From a virus (lineage: Duplodnaviria > Caudoviricetes), in the IMG/VR virus record IMGVR_UViG_3300028048_003161: DNA of 64,000 nucleotides. The stretch is one strand, 5' to 3'. The notes under the pieces were generated by a model. That model saw nothing but the letters and a program-made list of their open reading frames with translations. It searched no databases and was not told where the DNA came from. Numbering within the stretch: the stretch's first letter is position 1; each line of letters starts with the position of its first letter. Positions 44,804 through 58,297 of this stretch are shown piece by piece. A program made the translations under genes and the position numbers.

Positions 44804-45253
44804 ATGAAGAGACCTAGCAAAGACAAATATTACTTAGGAATTGCAGAAGCAACACTGGAGAGAAGCACTTGTTTAAGGAGACATTATGGTGCAGTGATTG
44901 TCAAGAATGATCAGATTGTTAGCACTGGTTATAATGGATCACCTCGTGGAGAGGATAACTGCTGTGACATTGGTTATTGTGAAAGAGAGGCACAGGGAGT
45001 AGCAAAGGGTGAGCGCTATGAGTTGTGTGTAGCCATTCATGCAGAGGACAATGCAATTATGAATGGTGGTAGAGAGCATGTCAAAGGTGGTACAATGTAC
45101 ATTGTTGGTAAGGAATGCAGTGATGGTTCATATGCTAATCCTTGTCCTTGTATGATGTGTCGTAGAAAGATTGTAAATGCAGGCATTTCTAGGGTAGTAG
45201 GTTTATTTCAGGATGGAAGCATCAAGGAAATCGACTTCAGCACTCATGGTTAA
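44804..45253 (+). CDS. dCMP deaminase (ComEB-like)
   Basis: RSTCLRR..GAVIV, STGYNG, HAEDNA, PCMMC zinc motifs. Confidence 0.9.
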   Translation: MKRPSKDKYYLGIAEATLERSTCLRRHYGAVIVKNDQIVSTGYNGSPRGEDNCCDIGYCEREAQGVAKGERYELCVAIHAEDNAIMNGGREHVKGGTMYIVGKECSDGSYANPCPCMMCRRKIVNAGISRVVGLFQDGSIKEIDFSTHG

Positions 45254-45313
45254 AGAGATTAACATAGAATAATTAAGTGGTTTAGCAAATAGAAATTAGT
45301 GGAGGACATAAAA

Positions 45314-46630
45314 ATGGCAGAGTTAAACGTTGAAGATAAGATGGTGCGTACAACAGTTAAGCTTAGATTAAAGATTAGTTCATTCTATTCTGCAATCTAC
45401 AGTTCACTTAGTCATAACGAAAGTGACATGGTTGAGAAAATGGAGTTCTGTGGTAAAAATATGTATTACAATCCTAAATATATTGAGGCACTTGAATCTG
45501 ATGAGGTTACATTTGAGGCAATGCATTTAGCAGTTCATATTGGTTTATTGCACGTAGTCAGACTTGCAAGAAAGAAGCAAACACGTAAGTCTGTAAACTA
45601 CAAACTGTTTAATATCGCATGTGATCTTATTGCGAATTCCTTACTCTATGAGGAATTTGGGGTTGGACCTGAAAGACCTGTAACATACATTAAGATGCCT
45701 AAGGGCGAGTTCTTCTGTTCTACAGTAAGTGTTGATACAGACACTGTAGAGGACTTATATGAGTATATGTTGTCACAAATGGACAATGATAAGGACTTTA
45801 TTACTGTTAGAGGTAAAAAGCAACTTTCTGATTATGACAATATGCAGAATTATGCTGAACTTAAGATTGATAAAAAAGACATTGAAAATTATACACCTGA
45901 CATCAATACTACAGAGATGTCTGATGGAGTTGCAGATGCAGACGCTGTTGAGAGACAGTCACGACAGATGTTAAATGCAGCTTACATGAAGAGTAAGATG
46001 ATGGGCGATGGTGCTCAGGCAGGAGTTGGTGGAGTTGGTTTAGCACGAGAAGTTGGTAAGATCATGTCAAGTCATATGGATTGGCGTAAGTATCTTAAGA
46101 GATTCTGTATCAAAATGAAAGAATCAGAGGCTTCATTTGCTACACCTGACAAAAGAATGTATTACCAGAGTTTAATCTATCCTGGACATAGTAAGAAATT
46201 AAGTAATGAGATTGACAACGTTAAGATTTGTTTTGATACCAGTGGTTCTATTTCAGAGGACGATCTGGGAAGATTTCTTGGACAGGTACTAAAGCTGACT
46301 ACACAGTATAAAGTAGATGCTGATCTTATTTGTTGGGATGGGGATGTTGAGTCAGTAACAAACCTTAACAAGAAATCAACATTGAAAAACAATAAGATGT
46401 ACGGTGGTGGAGGTACGGATCCTTCATGTATCTTTAGATACTTCGACTCACCTGCTTGTAAGCGTAAACCTTATGTGACAATCATCTTCACAGATGGTTA
46501 TATCCTTGAAGAAGGACTGAATAACCCTTCTTGGGGTCGTAAGTACAAGGATACACTTTGGGTATTAACAAAAGATTACAATAGAGATTTTCGACCTCCA
46601 TTTGGAAAAGTGACAGAGGTTGAGCAGTAG
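45314..46630 (+). CDS. DUF2201-type metallopeptidase-like + VWA domain protein
   Basis: YYNP, HLAVH..LH (degenerate HExxH), NIACDL..N, MIDAS DTSGS, GGGGTD, IFTDG. Confidence 0.8.
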   Translation: MAELNVEDKMVRTTVKLRLKISSFYSAIYSSLSHNESDMVEKMEFCGKNMYYNPKYIEALESDEVTFEAMHLAVHIGLLHVVRLARKKQTRKSVNYKLFNIACDLIANSLLYEEFGVGPERPVTYIKMPKGEFFCSTVSVDTDTVEDLYEYMLSQMDNDKDFITVRGKKQLSDYDNMQNYAELKIDKKDIENYTPDINTTEMSDGVADADAVERQSRQMLNAAYMKSKMMGDGAQAGVGGVGLAREVGKIMSSHMDWRKYLKRFCIKMKESEASFATPDKRMYYQSLIYPGHSKKLSNEIDNVKICFDTSGSISEDDLGRFLGQVLKLTTQYKVDADLICWDGDVESVTNLNKKSTLKNNKMYGGGGTDPSCIFRYFDSPACKRKPYVTIIFTDGYILEEGLNNPSWGRKYKDTLWVLTKDYNRDFRPPFGKVTEVEQ

Positions 46631-47104: not shown

Positions 47105-47460
47105 ACAGTGGTGAAAAATTGTGGTATGCATTGTAGGTTCTAACATATTTTAATAATTTGGTTTGTTGATGACAAATGAAAGGTTAGGTGTCATAAATTG
47201 AATAAACTAACGAAAATTGGCAATAATAACAGTGATAGTGTAATCTACATAGATTTACTATTAAGGAATGCAGTCGTACAATCGTGGGGTATGCATTAGC
47301 GAAAAATTGGGTTCGACATATGGTTTCAAAAAATTAAAATTTTTCGAGGTTTTAATAAGCATTGGAAAATTAAACGACATTCGATATGCATTCAAAATTG
47401 AAATAGAGTTTCAGAAATGAAAAAGTACATAGTAAAGTGTATGATGGAGGCATAGAGAAT

Positions 47461-47733
47461 ATGGTAAAGCAGAGTAAAAGTAATGAGGCATATGATAGAG
47501 CATTGGATCTAATTAGTAAGTTCATGACTAATAGAGAGTACTGCACTGATATTGACTATGAAGCATTAGTGGTATTATTAGATGGTTTAACGGACATTAT
47601 GTCTGAAAACAATAAGGCACTAATAAAAGAGCTATTGCAGTTGAGTGGTTTGGACAAGGATGTAAGTTTGGCAGCTGACAGAATAATTAAGCATGGAGGA
47701 AAATTAAATGGGCAATACAATAAGCATGAATAA
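47461..47733 (+). CDS. Hypothetical protein
   Basis: GGAGG RBS before ATG 47461. Confidence 0.6.
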   Translation: MVKQSKSNEAYDRALDLISKFMTNREYCTDIDYEALVVLLDGLTDIMSENNKALIKELLQLSGLDKDVSLAADRIIKHGGKLNGQYNKHE

Positions 47734-48220
47734 CATAGGAATGAAGTTAATTGCACCTGATGGTACTTATGATATCATTAAAGTAATTGCAGATACAGAT
47801 GAATTATGGGAAGAGGTCAGGTCTAGAAATTCAGGAGAGAATAAGTATAATTACAGATACATACTTGACAATAGAATTACTTCTAATATAGAAGTTGTGA
47901 CAGAAGAGACTGGGGATTGTGCAAGGGTTGTTTATGATTATGCATTTACAGGAATGGAAGGTTACCTTGTACAACTTGTGGAGGTACTAGATAATAGTGA
48001 GAGTGACAGTGTAGTTGAAGGAGTTGCATTGACAGATGCATTTCTTATAGGAGCATGCATTGAGGAATTAAAGAAATGCAGTGGCGTAAAAGAGTCAGAA
48101 AATGGTAGAATGAAGATTGAGCATGGAGATTGGAGTGTTACATTTTTCAGGCATAAGTTAATTAAGATTGGTGCAGCTGCTAAATCAATAGTACATATTG
48201 AATTTGAAGCAATGCAGTAG
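47708..48220 (+). CDS. Hypothetical protein
   Basis: GGAGG RBS, overlaps previous ORF. Confidence 0.65.
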   Translation: MGNTISMNNIGMKLIAPDGTYDIIKVIADTDELWEEVRSRNSGENKYNYRYILDNRITSNIEVVTEETGDCARVVYDYAFTGMEGYLVQLVEVLDNSESDSVVEGVALTDAFLIGACIEELKKCSGVKESENGRMKIEHGDWSVTFFRHKLIKIGAAAKSIVHIEFEAMQ

Positions 48221-48305
48221 AAAGTTAAACAATGGACATGGTTATAGTCATTGAAAATATAATAAATAAATTTTTATTATTTTATTATTTTTTAGGGGTG
48301 TAAAC

Positions 48306-48560
48306 ATGAGCATTGGTTTATCAGAGATAATACTTATTGGTTTAATAGTATTAGCATTGTTCAAACCTGAGAAACTTAAAGAATATGCAAGAGCATTAGG
48401 AAAAGCACTTAGGTACTTAAAGGATGAAAAAGAGAAGATTGATGATAGTGTTATAACACCTGTAAAAGAAGCAATGGAGCCTGTAACTGATATCAAGAAA
48501 GACATTGATGAGACAGTTGGAAGCATTAAGGATACATTGACAGCAGATAATAAAAAATGA
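48306..48560 (+). CDS. tatB: Twin-arginine translocase subunit, TatA/TatB family
   Basis: SIGLSEIILI..LALFKPEKL...AR.LGK; E in TM and PEKL hinge typical of TatB/TatA. Confidence 0.75.
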   Translation: MSIGLSEIILIGLIVLALFKPEKLKEYARALGKALRYLKDEKEKIDDSVITPVKEAMEPVTDIKKDIDETVGSIKDTLTADNKK

Positions 48561-48594
48561 AAAGAACAAATGATTATAGGAGGATAACATTATC

Positions 48595-48783
48595 ATGGGT
48601 ACAGGAATTTTTGAGATTTTTCTGGTTGTTTTGGTAATATTTCTGTTTGTGGGACCTAAGCAGTTGCCAAAGTTGACAAGAGCAGTGAAAGATTCAATTC
48701 ACGAGATCAAAGACGAAGTAGGCAAGGATAAAGAAAAGTCAGACAGTGAAGATGAGGAAGAGGACAGTAAGAAAGAGGCATAG
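48595..48783 (+). CDS. tatA: Twin-arginine translocase subunit TatA
   Basis: GIFEI..V....LFVGPKQLPKL.R..KD amphipathic helix, acidic tail. Confidence 0.85.
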   Translation: MGTGIFEIFLVVLVIFLFVGPKQLPKLTRAVKDSIHEIKDEVGKDKEKSDSEDEEEDSKKEA

Positions 48784-48797
48784 GAGCGGTTGGAGCC

Positions 48798-49544
48798 GTG
48801 AAGAGACACAAGAAAAATAAAGATCCTAACAGCTTAACTTTAGGTGAGCATTTAAGAGAACTGAAGAAACGTGTATTTAGCATATTACTAGCATTTGTTG
48901 TAGTATTTATACTAGCCTATGTGAAAAGTGAAAACATATTAGCATTTGTGATGTCTTTAGGTAAAAGGGCAGGATACACATTTGTATATATTTCACCTCA
49001 AGAAGTAATTCTACAGCAGTTAAGAATTGCAGGAGTGTTTTCAATAATTGTGGTATTGCCTTTGATAATTTATCACATTGCAAGGTTTGTTTCACCTGTA
49101 TTTACAAGTAAGCATGCTTTTAGAAAGTTGATACTTATAGGAATTGGAGCAATCCTGTTCTTTGTAGCTGGTACACTATTCGCTTATAAGGTGTTACTTC
49201 CTTTTGTATATCAGTTCTTTTATGGGCTAGGAAATGACTTAGGGATTCAAGCCAATGTATCATTGGATGAATATTTGTCATTGTTCTTAACAATTGAAAT
49301 TTGTTTGGGGGTTGTGACAGAAATGCCTTTAGCTTGTTTGGTTTTAACAAGGGCAGGAGTAATAAATTCAACCTTGTTGAAAAAGGGAAGGGTAGTAGCA
49401 ACAGTGATAATATTCATTGTTGGAGCAATTATAACACCTCCTGATGTGGTTTCACAGTGTATGGTTGCAATACCTATGGTTGGTTTATATCAGTTAAGCA
49501 TTTGGGTAAGCACTTTAGCAGAAAAGAAAAAGAGAGGTAAGTAA
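48798..49544 (+). CDS. tatC: Twin-arginine translocase subunit TatC
   Basis: TLGEHLRELKKR, SPQE, FVSP, EMP, AIITPPD, LYQ; six TM helices. Confidence 0.95.
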   Translation: MKRHKKNKDPNSLTLGEHLRELKKRVFSILLAFVVVFILAYVKSENILAFVMSLGKRAGYTFVYISPQEVILQQLRIAGVFSIIVVLPLIIYHIARFVSPVFTSKHAFRKLILIGIGAILFFVAGTLFAYKVLLPFVYQFFYGLGNDLGIQANVSLDEYLSLFLTIEICLGVVTEMPLACLVLTRAGVINSTLLKKGRVVATVIIFIVGAIITPPDVVSQCMVAIPMVGLYQLSIWVSTLAEKKKRGK

Positions 49545-49547
49545 GAA

Positions 49548-49673
49548 ATGAGTGACAGCACAAAGAAAATTACAATTATTGGCACTGGTGCCATAGTTAT
49601 AGCTGTTATTATTGGTGTAGTTCATACAGTTGCAAAGATTGTTCCTGCTATGGTTGATGATTATGAGGACTAG
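49548..49673 (+). CDS. Small membrane peptide (41 aa) within the Tat/rSAM cluster
   Basis: GAGG RBS; MSDSTKKITIIGTGAIVIAVIIGVVHTVAKIVPAMVDDYED*; single TM. Confidence 0.55.
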   Translation: MSDSTKKITIIGTGAIVIAVIIGVVHTVAKIVPAMVDDYED

Positions 49674-49721
49674 GAATTATAAAAAGTGAGACAAGTAGTT
49701 TATTTTAGGAGGCAGTCAGAA

Positions 49722-49991
49722 ATGAAAGAGGATACAGAGAGTAAAATAACTAGAGCAGAGTTCTTAAAGAAATCTGCATTAGGAATGGCTGCTGTAGCAC
49801 TTGCAGCAAAGTTTGGAACAGGTATTGTTTCAACACCTAGTCCTACACAAAGTAAGAGTAGTGGAGGTACTTGTGTGAGTGCAGTAGCACCGAGTGATAA
49901 GACAGTTGTTTGGATTGACACAGCTCATGGGGGTATTACAAAATATTGGGATGGACATGAGTGGAAACCTACAGTTGCTACTTGGGGTTAA
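49722..49991 (+). CDS. Small Tat-signal protein (variant TRAEFLK motif)
   Basis: AGGAGG RBS; ITRAEFLKKS plus hydrophobic h-region; C-terminal APS...WIDT...KYWDG..W module. Confidence 0.7.
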   Translation: MKEDTESKITRAEFLKKSALGMAAVALAAKFGTGIVSTPSPTQSKSSGGTCVSAVAPSDKTVVWIDTAHGGITKYWDGHEWKPTVATWG

Positions 49992-50019
49992 ATAGGAGCA
50001 TAAGAGTAGAGGTTTTAAC

Positions 50020-50598
50020 ATGAAGGCAAAAAAGGTAAAAGAGTTAAAAAGGAAACTCAAAAATGAACTGCGTAGAAGAAATGGTTATGGTTCAGTTGCT
50101 CATTTAGCTGCTAACAGGTACAACTTTGATGAGCAACCAGAAGATGGTAAGCCAATTAAAGCAGAGCATGGAGAAAAAACAGTTAATCTATTACTTCAAA
50201 TAGAGGACATTGAAGGTCTGACAGCAGTCAGGAAAGGTGATCCGATACCTGAAGCTTTTAACGAAAAGCTTATTGAAGTTGTAGAAAAGCTTGCAGGAGA
50301 AGAAATGAATGGTGAGTCAGAGTTCACTGCAAGAGTGATACATACAAACAAAAAGGCAGAGAGGTCATCTTGTAGAGCAGAATGTACAGGTTTATGTGTA
50401 GGAAGTTGCATAGGGTTTTGCAATGGATGCCATGGTTGTACAGGATGTAGCGGTACTTGTGAGGGTGAACGTGCAATTACAGGTGCTGAACAGAGAAGAG
50501 TGAATAGATGCGTTAGGACAATGAGAACATCAGTTGATAATTCTAATTGGGCAGGAATTAAGGCAGGTATTTATAATGAAGTAATTAAAAATAAATAA
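50020..50598 (+). CDS. Cys-rich CXXX-repeat precursor/target of the radical SAM maturase
   Basis: CRAECTGLCVGSCIGFCNGCHGCTGCSGTC (9 Cys at 3-4 residue spacing) upstream of a CXXX-type rSAM. Confidence 0.75.
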   Translation: MKAKKVKELKRKLKNELRRRNGYGSVAHLAANRYNFDEQPEDGKPIKAEHGEKTVNLLLQIEDIEGLTAVRKGDPIPEAFNEKLIEVVEKLAGEEMNGESEFTARVIHTNKKAERSSCRAECTGLCVGSCIGFCNGCHGCTGCSGTCEGERAITGAEQRRVNRCVRTMRTSVDNSNWAGIKAGIYNEVIKNK

Positions 50599-50613
50599 TT
50601 TTGGAGAAAAATA

Positions 50614-50931
50614 ATGGAGAAACTAGACATTAAAGACAATGGATTGCATGTTTATGATGTACCTGAACGTTATCAATATGTAATTAACAGAGGTACATTT
50701 GAATTGAGTAAGGCAGCAAGCAATATTGCTTTTATGCTTGACAAACATTTGGATGATCCTGATTGGTTGGACAGTGAGTTGTATCAGCAGCTCGAGCATA
50801 GGTTGATTGAGACATCAATTAACAACTGGGTTTATACAAATGGTGCATTACTTGCTATGGGAATTGACCCTGCAAAGTATGCTTGGAAAATAAGCAGAGA
50901 CTATACAGAAATAGCAGTTCAAAGGAGATAA
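50614..50931 (+). CDS. CXXX-system accessory protein (putative)
   Basis: 105 aa; H.DD...S.LYQ..E and C-terminal W.I pattern weakly like the repeats of ORF 52506. Confidence 0.55.
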   Translation: MEKLDIKDNGLHVYDVPERYQYVINRGTFELSKAASNIAFMLDKHLDDPDWLDSELYQQLEHRLIETSINNWVYTNGALLAMGIDPAKYAWKISRDYTEIAVQRR

Positions 50932-50933
50932 AC

Positions 50934-52442
50934 ATGGAAAAGCAACGTAGGAAAAGAAAGAAATTCCTTCAATTTAACGAATGGATTTCTAATATGTACC
51001 CTGAATATGTGAGACAGGCTCAGGAAAGAGCAGGTGGGGTATCACTTACAGACCTGGAGAAAGAAAATCATAGGGCAATTCCTTTATCAAAGGAATTTAC
51101 ATTTCAGGTTACAGACAAATGTAATTTAGCATGTACATATTGTTATCAGATCAACAAGTCAACAAGGAGGATGCCATTTGAAACTGCAAAGATTGCAGTT
51201 GATAAGTTATTAAGCGGCGCAGATGGGTTTGGTGATTACGTCAATCCTGAAACATCACCAGCTATTGTACTTGACTTCATTGGTGGTGAGCCTTTCTTGG
51301 AGGTTGAACTCATTGATCAGATTGTGGATTACTTTAGAGAACAAGCTATTAAGCTTAGACACCCTTGGGCAGAGAAATTTGCAATCAGCATTTGTACAAA
51401 TGGAGTACTTTACAAGGATCCTAAGGTACAAAAGTTTTTGCAGAAGAATACAGCTAATTTGAGTTTGTCTGTCACAGTTGATGGAATTAAGGAACTTCAT
51501 GATGCTTGTAGAATATTCCCTGATGGCAGACCTTCATATGATTTAGCTCATGGAGCAGCACTTGATTGGATGGCTCGTGGTTATGACATGGGAAGTAAGA
51601 TCACAATCGCACCTAACAACATTAAGTTTTTATCAAAGAGTCTTAAGCAAATGGTTGAGGATGGTTACTATGACATCAATGCTAACTGTGTATACGAGGA
51701 TGTTTGGAAACCTGAACATGCAACAGAACTTTACTATCAGTGTAAAGATTTCACAGACTTTATCAAAGATAAGATTGATCTGTTTGATTATAGTTTCTCA
51801 CTTTTACAAGAAAGATGTGGTAACCCTCTGTTAGAGAGTGATAACAATAACTGGTGTGGTGGTACAGGAGACATGTTAGCAGTAGATCCTGATGGAAGAA
51901 TCTTCCCTTGCATCAGATATATGGAGAGTAGCCTTGGCACACAGCAGAAGCCTATTGTTATTGGTGATGTGTGGAGAGGTATTGCACAGAAACCTTGTGA
52001 GAAAGAATGTTTAGAGTGCATGGGAAAAATCACTAGACGTTCACAGTCAACAGATGAGTGCTTCTATTGTCCAATTGGACAGGGTTGTGGCTGGTGTTCA
52101 GGGTTTAATTACCAGACATTTGGTACAGTCAACAAGAGAGCAACATTTACATGTGAGATGCATAAGTCACAGGCTTTAGCATCCTGCTATTTCAATAACA
52201 GTTTTGCTTTATTAAGCGAGAGATACAAAGATTTTGCAATGGACTTATGGGTTCCTGAGCAGTGGGCAGTTCCTATGATTGGTCAGGAAGAATATGACAA
52301 GCTTGTAGGAATGTGTAGACAGCTTGGTAGGTATGTAAATGATCAGAATGCTACAATGGTTAAGATACATGCAGATGAGGGCAGCGGTGAAATTTCTGAT
52401 TACATTCATAATCAGGATAAGATTGAGGTGCTGGCACGATAA
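50934..52442 (+). CDS. Radical SAM/SPASM peptide maturase, CXXX-repeat target family
   Basis: FQVTDKCNLACTYCYQ (CxxxCxxC), FIGGEP, SPASM CGGTG...GRIFPC and CFYC...GCGWC; start ATG 50934 after AAGGAG. Confidence 0.9.
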   Translation: MEKQRRKRKKFLQFNEWISNMYPEYVRQAQERAGGVSLTDLEKENHRAIPLSKEFTFQVTDKCNLACTYCYQINKSTRRMPFETAKIAVDKLLSGADGFGDYVNPETSPAIVLDFIGGEPFLEVELIDQIVDYFREQAIKLRHPWAEKFAISICTNGVLYKDPKVQKFLQKNTANLSLSVTVDGIKELHDACRIFPDGRPSYDLAHGAALDWMARGYDMGSKITIAPNNIKFLSKSLKQMVEDGYYDINANCVYEDVWKPEHATELYYQCKDFTDFIKDKIDLFDYSFSLLQERCGNPLLESDNNNWCGGTGDMLAVDPDGRIFPCIRYMESSLGTQQKPIVIGDVWRGIAQKPCEKECLECMGKITRRSQSTDECFYCPIGQGCGWCSGFNYQTFGTVNKRATFTCEMHKSQALASCYFNNSFALLSERYKDFAMDLWVPEQWAVPMIGQEEYDKLVGMCRQLGRYVNDQNATMVKIHADEGSGEISDYIHNQDKIEVLAR

Positions 52443-52505
52443 TAATAGGTATTAACTATTTGTTTAATAGTTAAGATATAAATAATTAAAAAGGAGATAT
52501 TAAAA

Positions 52506-53177
52506 ATGAAGATTACAGAAAAGATTATCAAAGTAAGCACGGAGGATACCAATAATGTGCAGACTTTAGACTTGAGACAGCAGGCTTTGGAGAACACAAT
52601 TGTTTCGTTTGTAGAGATGCATGCACTTGATGAGACACCTGCAGTACAGGAGAGTCCTATGATGCAGAGATACGAAGAGCGTTATGAAGATGCTCTGATG
52701 GCGTTTGATTCAGCTAAGTCAGCAATCGCTGATAAGTACATCGACGAAGAAATGCAGAAGATCTGTTCTAAGTGGTCACTTGAGTACAACACTTGTGAGT
52801 TAAAGTGTGAGGTTTCAGAGGGATTCAAGAATGACGATGCAGCTATTAAGGATGTGATCATCACAGTTTCAGAGGAAGATGCAAAGAAGATTCATAAGCT
52901 GGACATTAAACAGCAGGCACTTCAGAATATCGTTGCTTCATTTGCAGAGATGCATGCACTTGACAGTACATATGCTGCTCAGGAGAGTACTATGATGCAG
53001 AGATATGAGGAAAGATATGCAGAGGCTTTAACAGCATTTGATACTGCTAAGTCAGAATTAGCAGACAAGTATATTAGTAAAGAGATGCAGGAAGTTGTAG
53101 CTAAATGGTCATTAGAGTATGACAGCTGCGAACTTAAGTGCAAGGTACCTGCTGATTATGAGTATAAAGCAGAGTAA
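52506..53177 (+). CDS. CXXX-repeat modification system accessory protein, tandem duplicated domain
   Basis: Two ~105 aa copies sharing QQAL..SF.EMHALD..QES.MMQRYEERY..AL.AFD.AKS..ADKYI..EMQ...KWSLEY..CELKC. Confidence 0.7.
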   Translation: MKITEKIIKVSTEDTNNVQTLDLRQQALENTIVSFVEMHALDETPAVQESPMMQRYEERYEDALMAFDSAKSAIADKYIDEEMQKICSKWSLEYNTCELKCEVSEGFKNDDAAIKDVIITVSEEDAKKIHKLDIKQQALQNIVASFAEMHALDSTYAAQESTMMQRYEERYAEALTAFDTAKSELADKYISKEMQEVVAKWSLEYDSCELKCKVPADYEYKAE

Positions 53178-53302
53178 TAAAAGAGAGATAGACAGGACAG
53201 CTTAAATTGGTGCACATGTTGGTTTAATACTGACATGTGCATTGATTGATGTTTATAGAGAAGAGACATTAAAGGTAGACATAAGAGAGGGAGGATAAAG
53301 CA

Positions 53303-54085
53303 GTGAAAAACAAGGTATTAGCTTTATTTTTAACATTAACAATTACATCTGCAACGTTTACAGGTTGTGGAGAGGCTAAAACAGTAGTTGCACCTGTACC
53401 TAGCACTCAATCAGAAGTGCAGACAAATAATACAGAAGTTGCAGAGGTAGTCAATGAAGAGACAGAGGGTACAGAGGTTGCTGATGAAGCACCAGTAGAA
53501 GTAAACAAAGAGTACAGGTCAATACCTGGTGGTAATCTTGTAGAAGAGGCAACTGATACATCTTCAAAATACAAGATTCATTGGAAGTATGGCAGTTCAG
53601 ACAGCAAGATTGAGTTTGAGTCAGTTTATGGAAATATTGGATCATTCAAAAATGAAGAGCAGCCAGATGATGATGGAGTAGTTAGACTTTGTACACAGAC
53701 AGACTGGGTTTCAGTTGTAGACTGGGGTGGTTCTGATGACTACACAGCTAAGGCACAGGCAAAAGATCTGAAAGCAAAAGATGCATTGAAAGCATTTGAC
53801 AGTCTTAAGCCTGATTATGATAAAGCAGTGACAGATGACAGTAACAGTGACGAATTAAAGGTTTATACAGCATTTGGTAATGCAGACAGTGCTGATGGCA
53901 TTCATGGTTATGTGGTTAACATCAGGAACTTCAAACTTCACAAGTCAGCTAATGTCATTGTTGAGGGTAGAGAGGGACTTAACTACAATGATGAGTACCT
54001 GAAACAAATTGTTGATACAATGCACATTGGTACATTCGATGACACTGAGGTCGTTGAGAGTAAGAGTGATAAAAGCAGTAAATAA
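53303..54085 (+). CDS. Lipoprotein
   Basis: Signal with FTGC lipobox. Confidence 0.75.
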   Translation: MKNKVLALFLTLTITSATFTGCGEAKTVVAPVPSTQSEVQTNNTEVAEVVNEETEGTEVADEAPVEVNKEYRSIPGGNLVEEATDTSSKYKIHWKYGSSDSKIEFESVYGNIGSFKNEEQPDDDGVVRLCTQTDWVSVVDWGGSDDYTAKAQAKDLKAKDALKAFDSLKPDYDKAVTDDSNSDELKVYTAFGNADSADGIHGYVVNIRNFKLHKSANVIVEGREGLNYNDEYLKQIVDTMHIGTFDDTEVVESKSDKSSK

Positions 54086-54123
54086 TGGATTAGCAGGTAA
54101 TTAAAGAGACTTGCTTAAAATAG

Positions 54124-54161
54124 AAAATGCTCAACATTTAGAATAGGTGTTGGGCATTTTT
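54124..54161 (+). terminator. Intrinsic terminator
   Basis: aaaatgctcaaca...tgttgggcattttt. Confidence 0.7.
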
Positions 54162-54196
54162 GATTAAAGAGAGAAAGAAAAAGGAGGGAGGAAAAT

Positions 54197-55240
54197 ATGA
54201 AGAAGTCAAGAGTAATTAGTTTATTAACAGCTATTGTAATTGGGGCAAGCTTAACAGGTTGTGGTATGGACTTGCACTATACAGTAGATACACAGGGTAA
54301 GACACATGAAGAGAATACAATCTACGTAACAGATGAAGAAGATAAACAGCTTGGTTTTGCTGAAAGTGCTAAGGATAAAGATAATGGCATAACCTACATG
54401 GGCACTCAAGAAGTCAATGGTAAGCAGTATAGAGTTTATCATGCAGTAGAGACAGAGAAAAACAAGGATAAGGACGCCATTAAAATTGGCGGACCTCAAT
54501 TGTTTGACAAGACAGAGTTTGTAATGAGTTACAATAACTCAGGTAAGTCAGACAATGCCACAGAGTGGCAAAACGTGTATGTTAGTATGAATGATCCTGT
54601 ATTGTTTACAAATGGCGAACTTTCAACTAATGGAAAGAACGTTGAGTTTAAGAATGTGCAGGATAAAAAAGGTACTGGTCTGCTTTATGTTTATACGAAG
54701 TCAGCTAAAAATGGTGTAATGCTTTCTAGTAAAAATATGAATACAGTTACATCTGAGAAGATGAAGCAGGGTGGAACAATGAATGTTACAGAGAAAAATG
54801 CAATGGTTACATCTAAAGTAGGTTATGGACTTACAAAAGATGGAACAATCAACATTGTAACTCCTGATAAGGTACAGAAGGTAACAGTGAATGGCAAGGC
54901 AGTTTCATTTAAGGGCAATAAGATTAAGCTTAGTAAGAGTGGAACATACACAGTAAAAGTAAAGACAAGGTACTTTAATAATAAATTCAAGCTTGTGGTT
55001 GATAAAACTAGACCTACAATTACAGGTAGGATGTCAGATAAAAAGATGGATGTATCAGTGACAGATAATGACAAAAACATGAGTGTTTATGTGGATGACA
55101 AAGCATCATTTGCAACTGCAAAGAAATTAAAGGGTGGTAAATATAATATGACAATGAAAGTCACTGGAAATGGGAAACATACAGTAAAAGCAGTAGATTC
55201 AGCAGGAAATGTACATAAAGTTACATTTACAATTAGATAA
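54197..55240 (+). CDS. Lipoprotein with C-terminal Ig-like beta domains
   Basis: LTGC lipobox; VDKTRPTI...GKHTVKAVDSAGN Ig-like motif. Confidence 0.75.
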   Translation: MKKSRVISLLTAIVIGASLTGCGMDLHYTVDTQGKTHEENTIYVTDEEDKQLGFAESAKDKDNGITYMGTQEVNGKQYRVYHAVETEKNKDKDAIKIGGPQLFDKTEFVMSYNNSGKSDNATEWQNVYVSMNDPVLFTNGELSTNGKNVEFKNVQDKKGTGLLYVYTKSAKNGVMLSSKNMNTVTSEKMKQGGTMNVTEKNAMVTSKVGYGLTKDGTINIVTPDKVQKVTVNGKAVSFKGNKIKLSKSGTYTVKVKTRYFNNKFKLVVDKTRPTITGRMSDKKMDVSVTDNDKNMSVYVDDKASFATAKKLKGGKYNMTMKVTGNGKHTVKAVDSAGNVHKVTFTIR

Positions 55241-57088: not shown

Positions 57089-57148
57089 ATATTGTAAGTA
57101 TATTTAATAAATAATTTGTTTAATATAAGAAAGCGAGGATTTTTAATT

Positions 57149-58297
57149 ATGGCAAACTTAAGCATTCCAGCAGTTAGTGTAGGACAGTTCAATCAGATCG
57201 TGGAGCAGCAGATCAGAGAAGAGAACTACAGACCTATTATTGGTTTAGGCAAGGGTGGTATTGGTAAGTCTGAATCACTGGGAGACCTGGCAAAGAGACT
57301 TGGTATTGGATATATTGACTTAAGACTTCTGTTATATACAGAGACAGACTTAAAGGGTATTCCTTATCCTAGCGTTGATCATAAGAAAACAGTCTGGCTG
57401 ACAAATGATATTTTACCTCAGTTTGATGCAGAGCATCCTGAAAACAGCAGAGATCCTGAAAGAGGAATTCTTGTACTTGATGAAGTTACATCAGCAAGTA
57501 AGAGTGTAAGAACAGCAGCTTATCAGCTCCTGCAGGAAAGAAAGTTAAATGACTATGTACTTCCTGAGAAATGGCTTGTAGTATGTATTGGAAATGGTGA
57601 GGACGATGGCGGTGAGTACAATGGTATCGAGCCTAACTTTGCTAACAGGTGCTCTGTTTATGAGGTAGTTGCAAAGTTTGATGAGTGGAAAACATGGGCG
57701 GTTGCACATGGGGTAAATCCTATGGTCATTGCTTATCTGAATACTAACAATCAGGATTTTCACAACTTCAACCCTGATTCTGATACAGACCTTGTGTTTG
57801 CATCGCCTCGTTCATGGAAGGCAGTAAGCGACATTCTGAATATGAATGAGTTCAATCCTGAAAATGAAGTGTTACTTGCAAGAATGGAAGCTAACGTAGG
57901 TAGTGGTCCAGTTGTAGCATTTAAAACTTTCATGGAGTACAAAAATCAGATGCTGAATACAGATGCTATTTTGGCAGGAGATTTTCCTGAGGTTGATAAC
58001 ATTCCTAATGAGGTTCTGTACATTACCTTAACAAACTTAAGCAGTAAGATGGCAGAGATTTTTGAGAGATGCCAGAAGAAGGGTGGCTTTGATGATGTGG
58101 CTCTGCATCAGGTAGGAAATGCAGTACGTTGGGTACTTGATCCTGATAGACCTAAGGAGTTCAGTGCTATGGCAGTAAATGACCTTATCAGATCAAATAA
58201 GGATGCATTTACAAGTTTATTAGGAAGTCAGCAGTTTAAGAATATCTGTCCTGAACTTAGTAACTTTGCATGTACTAACAGAAACATCTACAGATAA
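57149..58297 (+). CDS. MoxR-like AAA+ ATPase (usual partner of DUF2201/VWA proteins)
   Basis: GKGGIGKS, DLRL...DLKGIP, LVLDE, GN, ANR, SPRSW. Confidence 0.85.
   Translation: MANLSIPAVSVGQFNQIVEQQIREENYRPIIGLGKGGIGKSESLGDLAKRLGIGYIDLRLLLYTETDLKGIPYPSVDHKKTVWLTNDILPQFDAEHPENSRDPERGILVLDEVTSASKSVRTAAYQLLQERKLNDYVLPEKWLVVCIGNGEDDGGEYNGIEPNFANRCSVYEVVAKFDEWKTWAVAHGVNPMVIAYLNTNNQDFHNFNPDSDTDLVFASPRSWKAVSDILNMNEFNPENEVLLARMEANVGSGPVVAFKTFMEYKNQMLNTDAILAGDFPEVDNIPNEVLYITLTNLSSKMAEIFERCQKKGGFDDVALHQVGNAVRWVLDPDRPKEFSAMAVNDLIRSNKDAFTSLLGSQQFKNICPELSNFACTNRNIYR

Follow-up and report, generated by a model that had tools for sequence, protein, structure and literature searches.

A Tat translocase gene set linked to a CXXX-repeat radical SAM cassette in a 64-kb stretch of an IMG/VR record: a conserved combination with a possible role in protein export

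Why would a mobile element encode its own twin-arginine translocation (Tat) machinery directly beside a radical S-adenosylmethionine (SAM) maturase for a Cys-rich protein? This question is raised by positions 48306-53177 of a stretch of 64,000 nucleotides (nt) from the IMG/VR virus record IMGVR_UViG_3300028048_003161 (the whole stretch is called the window here), where nine plus-strand genes follow each other with intergenic gaps of 34, 14, 3, 48, 28, 15, 2 and 63 nt. The initial annotation, made from the DNA letters without database searches, had described these genes as a self-contained Tat translocase clustered with a radical SAM system; each gene that it listed is present at the same coordinates and on the plus strand, and the codirectional arrangement with short gaps (2-63 nt) was confirmed. 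Overall, our analyses show that the linkage of the Tat genes with the radical SAM cassette is not due to chance, and the combination is well supported as a real, conserved, functional unit. The genes are as follows (lengths in amino acids, aa).

48306-48560, + strand: TatA/TatB-family paralogue 1, 84 aa; PF02416, 39.6 bits (cut-off 21)
48595-48783, + strand: TatA/TatB-family paralogue 2, 62 aa; PF02416, 32.3 bits (cut-off 21)
48798-49544, + strand: TatC, 248 aa, full length; PF00902, 170.4 bits (cut-off 25.1), profile positions 1-208 of 208
49548-49673, + strand: 41-aa open reading frame with a single transmembrane segment and a possible ribosome-binding site; doubtful gene
49722-49991, + strand: 89-aa Tat-signal protein, ATG 49722 behind an AGGAGG site
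50020-50598, + strand: 192-aa candidate target of the radical SAM enzyme; weak match to TIGR04117, 18.8 bits (cut-off 50)
50614-50931, + strand: 105-aa helper, distantly TIGR04116-like; hhalign probability 89%, E = 2.4e-6
50934-52442, + strand: radical SAM/SPASM maturase, CXXX-repeat target family, 502 aa; TIGR04115, 441.9 bits (cut-off 350)
52506-53177, + strand: 223-aa tandem duplicate of a TIGR04116-like (CXXX_rpt_assoc) domain; TIGR04116, 22.5 bits in two stretches (cut-off 50)

The linkage was approached from both sides, i.e., from the maturase (loci L004 to L006) and from TatC and the signal protein (loci L167 to L170). TatA-TatC, the signal protein and the radical SAM cassette occur together in the window and in L004, L005, L006, L167, L168, L169 and L170, in shuffled order; the signal protein was found in 8/8 related loci with this type of TatC, and the radical SAM gene in all seven that extend far enough. 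L167 (a 396-kb contig), L168 and L170 share the compact order of the window, as does L169 up to the end of its contig. L004 shows the order radical SAM gene, PspA-like gene, helper, TatA, TatA, TatC and signal protein; in L005, 7 kb separate the radical SAM gene from TatA, TatA and TatC upstream of it, and the genes for the signal protein and a 755-aa coiled-coil protein lie in this interval; and the same set of parts recurs in L006, a locus of the isolate Lachnospiraceae bacterium 47-T17. In these three loci, TatA-TatA-TatC and the signal protein are thus found less than 8 kb from the radical SAM gene in differing gene orders. Members of the 192-aa protein family are kept beside or near Tat in 7/8 Tat-linked loci, in a short form of 144-192 aa. 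In the maturase tree, the six Tat-linked rows and L003 form one clade (Shimodaira-Hasegawa-like approximate likelihood ratio test, 96), nested in a phage-type clade (98). The initial annotation had named conservation of tatAC next to homologous radical SAM loci as a check on its proposal; as the genes are conserved there, the proposal is not refuted. Its further claim that the element brings its own Tat agrees with this conserved linkage and, in the one case open to such a test, with the host genome of L006, in which the single TatC is that of the element. A TatC search of three host genomes with phage-type cassettes found none.

Other genes accompany the set in some of these loci. A PspA/IM30-family gene is located between the radical SAM and tat genes at L004:9379-10062; PspA has reportedly been found to relieve saturation of Tat export in E. 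coli (DeLisa 2004, listed among the references of PMC13673990). Four Tat-linked loci carry, between TatC and the signal protein, a gene for a protein of 574-847 aa (L005:1721-3988, L006:6381-8873, L169:10731-13274 and L170:1941-3665), which is coiled-coil and membrane-anchored where read, and L004:3085-5121 encodes a 678-aa coiled-coil protein just before the Cys-repeat gene. Among these large proteins, homology was established for those of L005 and L006 only (phmmer, E = 5e-43), and no homologue was found in the window. Extra CXXX proteins with Lys-rich n-regions, hydrophobic regions (h-regions) rich in Ala, Val and Thr, and AxA-like ends, all without an Arg motif, are encoded at L005:6266-7308 and L006:9101-9691; in L006, the gene next after that of the signal protein encodes a CXXX protein with an Ala-rich, signal-like leader.

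Pfam and NCBIfam scans (PF02416, PF00902, TIGR00945) confirmed two TatA/B-family genes and a tatC gene where the initial annotation had listed tatB/A, tatA and tatC. TatC scored 167.4 bits against TIGR00945 (cut-off 132.7) and could be aligned to Aquifex TatC 4b4a (E = 4.5e-31). Paralogue 1, with the N-terminal sequence IGLSEI and the hinge FKPEKL, is possibly TatB-like, and every NCBIfam TatA and TatB model remained under its cut-off. Paralogue 2 shows the hinge FVGPKQLPK and an acidic tail, and its top NCBIfam model is tatB TIGR01410 with 35.8 bits, also under cut-off. As both paralogues fall under all NCBIfam TatA and TatB cut-offs, A and B roles cannot be assigned. A pair of a longer and a shorter TatA/B protein is nevertheless kept in 7/8 related loci.

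F94 and E103 of E. coli TatC are key residues for binding of the twin-arginine (RR) motif (PMC13673990, a 2026 review). When TatC motifs were compared among approx. 120 homologues and the alignment with Aquifex 4b4a, the window TatC was found to keep the equivalents of E. coli E15 and F94 (the latter type in RFVSP), while the E103 equivalent is replaced by His/Ala (SKHAFRK) at a place where other TatCs show xxE[KR][KR]. The E103-type Glu is also missing from approx. 28 related TatC clusters with at least 39% identity to the window protein, and GLYxxE[KR] is kept by every more distant TatC compared; L006 and L170, which keep the Glu, are the exceptions in the group of the window. A search of IMG/VR with the TatC alignment found no match, and neither did single-protein scans of genome contigs and of IMG/VR.

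The initial annotation had noted a protein of some 90 aa with a Tat-like signal; the protein is real, and its length, when counted from the ATG behind the AGGAGG site, is 89 aa rather than approx. 90-101 aa. It consists of an n-region (ITRAEFLKK), an Ala-rich h-region, a c-region Lys, a linker and an approx. 40-aa four-strand beta module with the motif VWIDT...KYWDG..W...WG. An AlphaFold2 model placed a helix at residues 11-30, followed by a loose linker and the four-strand module at 50-86, with a confidence (pLDDT) of approx. 85. The protein matches TIGR02811 ("TAT target") weakly, at 20 bits, and is the only protein of the 64-kb window in which a Tat-like signal was found. Pfam and PHROGs scans gave no match for the 89-, 192- and 105-aa proteins.

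The signal departs from the consensus S/T-R-R-x-F-L-K, as it reads T-R-A-E-F-L-K with a single Arg. In 7/7 aligned signal proteins, the other hallmarks of a Tat signal (F-L-K, the c-region Lys and an Ala-rich h-region of weak hydrophobicity) are kept, and the residue after the Arg is A, G, K or L. The co-encoded clients carry the signals TRAEFLK, TRKEFLK, SRLDFLK, TRADFLK, SRGEFLK (twice) and SRKEFLK. A library-wide profile search gave 26 cluster representatives with signal plus module, with K at the second position of the signal in 16 of them and A or R in three each; the remainder have S (two), E (one) or T (one). The RR member L170 has a TatC loop with Glu, and L006 keeps the Glu yet shows R-A in its signal. 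A strict rule by which loss of the TatC Glu goes with loss of the second signal Arg was rejected, since six loci and L170 fit it and L006 breaks it; the trend is suggestive of co-adaptation between the two sequences.

Outside these signal proteins, the approx. 40-aa W-I-D-T / K-Y-W-x-G / W module occurs in 2-15 copies in proteins of 250-3600 aa. It is absent from Pfam, the sole match in the multi-module relatives being a weak DUF2510-like one, and it seems to be a hitherto undescribed repeat in surface and fibre proteins. A 138-aa protein at L171:4713-5129 combines an RR signal (DRREFLK) with the same beta module; its gene has glycosyltransferase genes and a further two radical SAM genes as neighbors, and the 4.7 kb upstream contain no Tat. 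It possibly belongs to a different modification system that uses the same module.

The 192-aa protein comprises a conserved helical N-domain (approx. residues 1-97), a linker, a Cys array at residues 118-147 and a tail of 45 aa that is peculiar to the window copy. Nine Cys in CxxxC and CxxC spacing, as the initial annotation had counted, are found in this array (five at 4-residue spacing and the rest at 3), with an extra Cys at 164, and the protein has no signal peptide or h-region, also in agreement with that annotation. C118, C122, G124, C126 and C130 are invariant in the family alignment (A2). Members of the family, which were found in 84 fetched loci, have total lengths of 141-650 aa and combine a helical N-domain of approx. 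100 residues and a near-invariant first block (SSCRxxCTGLCxxxC) with a very variable Cys array. The AlphaFold2 model of the 192-aa protein reached a pLDDT of 74; a Foldseek search of the PDB with the N-domain model gave no fold match, and fold matches in BFVD were limited to uncharacterised gut-phage proteins. The idea that the short Cys array of the window is a frameshift remnant was rejected, as the other two frames are full of stops. A complex prediction for the N-domain (A2, residues 1-133) and the beta module (A3, residues 55-101) scored 0.09, which gives no verdict and was not used either way.

The maturase match covers positions 2-359 of the 359 in TIGR04115, and this score above cut-off confirms the CxxxCxxC plus SPASM maturase of the CXXX-repeat family that had been predicted. 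The radical SAM motif is CNLACTYC (CxxxCxxC) at residues 63-70, and a C-terminal cluster, CFYCPIGQGCGWC, is located at 376. Scores against the models of PapB (NF047865, 158.2 bits) and QhpD (TIGR03906, 91 bits) were below the cut-offs (340 for the former). A total of 4197 maturase homologues were found at E < 1e-20, two of which (P0030 and P0037, approx. 810 aa) carry the intein-type domains PF14528 LAGLIDADG and PF13403 Hint. A second maturase, TIGR04119, is absent, either separate or fused, from the window and from 34/34 "no-T119" loci of its clade. The ATG of the maturase gene is located 2 nt past the stop of the 105-aa gene, to which it is translationally coupled. The 105-aa protein, recorded earlier as a small accessory gene, is indeed present, and its identity can be refined to that of a distant TIGR04116-like protein; the hhalign comparison was made against the TIGR04116-like alignment, the protein having no family match on its own. 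Homologues are encoded directly 5' of the radical SAM gene in L004, L006, L167, L168 and L170. The two halves of the 223-aa protein are identical at 64 of 106 residues, as expected for the duplicated accessory protein reported before, and single- or double-domain homologues are located 3' of the radical SAM gene in L004, L005, L006, L167 and L168. With this duplicate and the 105-aa protein, the cluster encodes three TIGR04116-like helper domains.

Sequence comparisons indicate that the cassette derives from phage tail modules, an origin that the initial annotation overlooked, as it did the fibre C-terminal nature of the passenger in its proposed carrier. IMG/VR alone yielded 250 contigs with the maturase, many of them phages of 58-60 kb, and the phage cassette is located between tail and lysis genes. 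In 54/84 loci, a fibre-like gene (125-974 aa) ends shortly before the Cys-repeat gene, at -150 to +200 nt. This number does not count independent events, as many of these loci are near-copies from one sample; hosts with the pairing include Lachnospiraceae, Oscillospiraceae, Eubacteriaceae and others. The upstream fibre-like proteins match PHROG virion-structural families or Pfam BppU_N, and the 89-aa protein has a passenger homologous to their final stretch of approx. 40 residues. The beta module matches C-termini of phage fibre and BppU-like proteins with E values of 1e-11 to 1e-24, the common residues being AP..., W-I-D-T, K-Y-x-x-G, W and W-G. The 89-aa protein is thus a fibre end that has its shaft replaced by a Tat signal and that keeps the ancestral position before the Cys-repeat gene. 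The full order of the phage cassette (fibre, Cys-repeat, helper and radical SAM genes in a tail module) is not seen in the window, which keeps the order and homology of the Cys-repeat, helper and radical SAM genes and has no flanking tail or lysis genes. In another phage group, an 816-aa protein at L147:6670-9120 combines an N-terminal Cys-repeat region with a C-terminal ALK_LTK_GRD (polyglycine-II) domain (328 bits); its gene is followed by a helper, a radical SAM gene, a GH25-CHAP-SH3 endolysin and an integrase.

A scan of species genomes with the maturase alignment revealed three architectures. The 29 "split" loci, from Bacteroidota, Spirochaetota, Proteobacteria, Acidobacteriota and others, encode the radical SAM enzyme and a separate TIGR04119; a canonical S/T-RR-x-F-[FL]-K signal is present on 45/46 of their Cys-repeat target reading frames, and tatA-tatC directly follow the TIGR04116 gene in 12/29 (e.g., L001, MT837480.1). 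The operon-borne TatC is the sole TatC in 2/5 Bacteroidales genomes tested (L067 and L085; genomes G007 and G008), and CXXX proteins may therefore be the main Tat clients in those two genomes. Conversely, the targets of 22 "fused" Firmicutes loci (with fused TIGR04119) are peptides of 52-75 aa without a signal, and no Tat is present. The Gram-negative Tat-linked maturases are located on the opposite side of the maturase tree from the window, and the Gram-negative operon TatC is only approx. 27% identical to that of the window, i.e., no closer than other bacterial TatCs. Tat was therefore recruited independently on at least two occasions, a pattern in favor of a functional reason, i.e., a product that is made in the cytoplasm and exported afterwards. 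On the other hand, Tat is not required by the radical SAM system as such, since it is absent from the approx. 75 closest phage-type loci (see below) as well as from the 22 "fused" loci.

We hypothesized that the cluster forms a single operon that joins two modules, and that this operon resides on a giant extrachromosomal element, coded on a single strand, in a Lachnospiraceae-like host. One would be a dedicated Tat with two TatA/B paralogues and a TatC with an altered RR-binding site, having one obvious client, the 89-aa pre-protein with its single-Arg signal ([ST]-R-x-[DE]-F-L-K) and small beta module; the other would be the CXXX cassette of phage-tail descent, with the Cys-array protein, the TIGR04116-like helpers and the TIGR04115 radical SAM/SPASM enzyme. 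Guided by the helpers, this enzyme would act in the cytoplasm and modify the Cys array of the 192-aa protein, most likely by forming Cys-to-carbon thioether staples as in the nearest characterised relatives. A stapled product matured in the cytoplasm would be unsuited to threading through Sec, and, as the usual hosts appear to have no Tat, the element would supply its own. The 192-aa protein, which has no signal, would most likely leave bound to the 89-aa protein, whose passenger is the module also found at the end of the phage fibre that is encoded just ahead of the Cys-repeat gene, and the pair would then be displayed on the cell surface. Modification, chemistry, export, hitch-hiking and surface function are all steps that we infer. 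That Tat serves export of the matured Cys-repeat protein or proteins of the element seems to us evenly balanced between true and false, and the hitch-hiker route of the 192-aa protein on the 89-aa protein is proposed tentatively. The most specific version, i.e., a private and partly orthogonal Tat of giant Clostridia elements in which the E103-less TatC reads [ST]-R-[K/A/G/L]-[D/E]-F-L-K and a signal-plus-docking protein ferries a stapled, fibre-tip-derived Cys-ladder protein to the surface, is rather unlikely to be correct in full.

Several observations weigh against this proposal. The thioether chemistry is extrapolated from distant relatives, the PapB and QhpD models having scored below their cut-offs. 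Tat is present in 0 of the approx. 75 closest phage-type loci, which suggests that the ancestral Cys-repeat protein was a virion part assembled in the cytoplasm with no need for export, and within the Tat-linked clade L003 has no Tat within 8 kb. The gene order in the window, with the module next to the Cys-repeat gene, could be no more than an inheritance, and in 25 of the 84 loci the Cys-repeat gene is located behind fibres with other C-termini. The module, repeated 2-15 times in large unrelated proteins, may have a general role in binding surfaces or glycans instead of serving as a docking site. L006 encodes the signal protein, Tat and the radical SAM enzyme and no protein with the N-domain of the 192-aa family, so the signal protein is not tied to this domain. 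Finally, activity of TatC is not assured, because one of its two key RR-binding residues (PMC13673990) is missing.

Some of these points fit an alternative that we consider unlikely, though worth serious attention, in which Tat serves signal-bearing clients only (the 89-aa protein and perhaps other Cys-repeat proteins with Ala-rich leaders), and the 192-aa protein remains cytoplasmic or becomes part of a particle. Its position would then reflect an inherited phage gene order (fibre end, Cys protein, helper and radical SAM gene) and not co-export. This explanation would fit with a phage-type cassette that needs no Tat, with the extra CXXX proteins of L005 and L006 (the n-region rich in Lys, the h-region in Ala, Val and Thr, and the end AxA-like) and with the absence of the 192-aa family from L006. 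It accounts less well for the retention of the 192-aa family beside or near Tat in 7/8 Tat-linked loci, always at 144-192 aa, and for the lack of any Arg motif in the leader-type CXXX proteins; moreover, a whole Tat seems costly for a 40-aa beta module that Sec could carry.

If the element were instead a jumbo phage or phage-like, the 89-aa protein could be a free receptor-binding fibre tip that coats the host receptor, resulting in superinfection exclusion or a block of readsorption, and the radical SAM cassette would independently build a fibre part of the virion. The module does end BppU_N-type and virion-structural proteins of many phages, the cassette is located between tail and lysis genes in phages, and inteins, which are often found in phage genes, occur in radical SAM homologues on large contigs. 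We nevertheless regard this explanation as improbable, since no virion gene was detected in the 64-kb window, the TatC alignment had no match in IMG/VR, related contigs carry ArdC-type, FtsH, DnaJ and small acid-soluble spore protein (SASP) genes that better fit a plasmid-like replicon, and the use of Tat rather than Sec would be left unexplained. Even less probable is that the variant TatC does not perform RR transport at all, being either an insertase that anchors the 89-aa protein through an uncleaved signal or a decaying protein, without a tie to the radical SAM system. The E103-type Glu is missing in the window and in approx. 28 related TatC clusters, loss of both F94 and E103 has been interpreted as an inactive RR site in haloarchaeal TatCt (PMC13673990), and the window signal has no clear AxA site near its h-region. 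However, the equivalents of F94 and E15 are kept, as are R, F-L-K and the c-region Lys in all signal members, and linkage to the cassette is found in 8/8 loci; the three tat genes are intact, full length and kept as a set across proteins that are only 35-50% identical, which argues for selection. We prefer the reading in which Tat exports a product matured by the radical SAM enzyme.

The layout of the nine genes is operon-like, with translational coupling and with one promoter-like and one terminator-like site, both of which come from a consensus scan alone:

48251-48280, + strand: sigma-70-like promoter candidate TTGAAA-18-TATTAT; 10/12 consensus matches, weak evidence
53205-53247, + strand: intrinsic-terminator-like hairpin with a 19-pair stem, closing the cluster

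The promoter candidate is located 5' of the first tat gene, inside an AT-rich gap of 85 nt after the preceding gene, and the hairpin is the sole strong terminator-like site on the plus strand within 47400-54300. The 41-aa transmembrane peptide listed by the initial annotation exists as a reading frame with a possible ribosome-binding site; as no homologue was found in any related locus, it may not be a gene, and a role as a conserved part of the system was rejected. The reported absence of a peptidase and an ABC exporter from the cluster was confirmed. Just 3' of the terminator, at 53303-55240, two genes without family matches encode proteins with lipoprotein-type N-termini (...TFTGC and ...SLTGC), which are probably Sec/Lsp clients outside the cluster.

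The entire 64-kb window has one coding strand and includes replication and repair genes (RecJ-like, PolA-like, a 5'-3' exonuclease, and an AAA ATPase with a VWA partner); a search for virion genes among its proteins detected none. The nearest maturase and TatC relatives are located on contigs of 150-396 kb. The element is treated here as a giant extrachromosomal replicon. Genes for a 443-aa VWA/metallopeptidase-like protein (45299-46630; PHROG 1314, 228 bits) and a MoxR-like AAA ATPase (57116-58297; PHROG 1297, 235 bits) flank the region, 11 kb apart, and 44804-45253 encodes a likely dCMP-deaminase-type protein, as judged from its HAE...PCxxC motifs only.

The conserved combination of Tat with a CXXX radical SAM cassette is, as far as we found, unpublished, and its component kinds are known; a literature search on the CXXX-repeat system, Tat-exported ribosomally synthesized and post-translationally modified peptides (RiPPs), phage or plasmid Tat, and radical SAM-modified fibres found nothing relevant. 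New here are the phage-tail origin of the cassette, the fibre C-terminal module as passenger, and the loss of the E103-type Glu in most TatCs of the clade. If the preferred reading is true, cross-linked proteins matured by radical SAM enzymes would follow an export rule, leaving by Tat either with their own RR signal (in Gram-negatives) or on a carrier (in these elements). A private Tat would represent the first Tat-dependent hitch-hiker export of a RiPP-like radical SAM product, convergent with the Bacteroidales CXXX targets that have RR signals and their own tatAC. The pairing of an E103-less TatC with single-Arg signals bears on how Tat reads its signal, and a giant mobile element would have converted a phage tail-tip module and its dedicated maturase to a cell-surface system. 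The CXXX-repeat family, with more than 4000 maturase homologues, is biochemically unstudied, and the isolate Lachnospiraceae bacterium 47-T17 (L006) makes the Tat-linked form experimentally approachable.

Compared to the CXXX-repeat system of NCBIfam (targets TIGR04114 and TIGR04117, radical SAM enzyme TIGR04115, second maturase TIGR04119 and associated protein TIGR04116), a family defined by bioinformatics on which we found no paper, the cluster is alike in its maturase above cut-off, and resembles it in a candidate target with a short array that in part has a Cys at every fourth residue and in flanking TIGR04116-like helpers. It differs in that the window and its clade have no TIGR04119, helpers and target score far below the cut-offs, a folded N-domain of approx. 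115 aa takes the place of the short leader or RR signal in the target, and the cassette is of phage-tail lineage. The Bacteroidales and Spirochaetota form (L001) likewise has a dedicated Tat in the operon of a CXXX radical SAM maturase; however, it has a canonical twin-Arg signal on the target itself and a TatC that keeps the E103-type Glu, neither of which is seen in the window.

Hitch-hiking of a signal-less partner through Tat is described for HybO/HybC of E. coli hydrogenase-2 (Rodrigue et al. 1999, as presented in PMC13673990). The window is similar in that a signal-less protein is encoded beside a small protein with the only Tat signal, but its candidate carrier is a 40-aa module without a cofactor, its putative cargo would be a radical SAM-modified repeat protein, and binding between the two is a proposal. 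A substrate-dedicated minimal TatAC of Gram-positives is represented by phoD-tatAd-tatCd of Bacillus subtilis, which also encodes a TatA/TatC set together with its client in a Firmicute. The set in the window, by comparison, is located on a mobile element whose hosts apparently have no Tat, and it has two TatA/B paralogues, a single-Arg signal and an E103-less TatC. PapB/freyrasin (NF047865) and QhpD/QhpC (TIGR03906) represent Cys thioether-stapling radical SAM/SPASM systems and, with model scores of 158 and 91 bits (both well below cut-off), include the characterised enzymes to which the maturase is most closely related; unlike their targets, the CXXX array of the window has no conserved Asp/Glu acceptor position. 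QhpC is cross-linked in the cytoplasm and exported afterwards, in this case by an ABC exporter after leader cleavage, and the window cluster has no such genes. Phage fibres are known to be paired with a downstream tip/adhesin or assembly protein, e.g., T4 gp37-gp38 and lambda Stf-Tfa, which resemble the tight coupling of the end of a fibre gene to a small downstream gene seen in the 54/84 loci, and one cassette relative fuses the Cys array to the ALK_LTK_GRD polyglycine-II domain. Similarity to gp38 or Tfa was found neither in sequence nor in fold, and the system in the window differs from these pairs by its dedicated radical SAM enzyme and by a Tat signal that takes the place of the fibre shaft.

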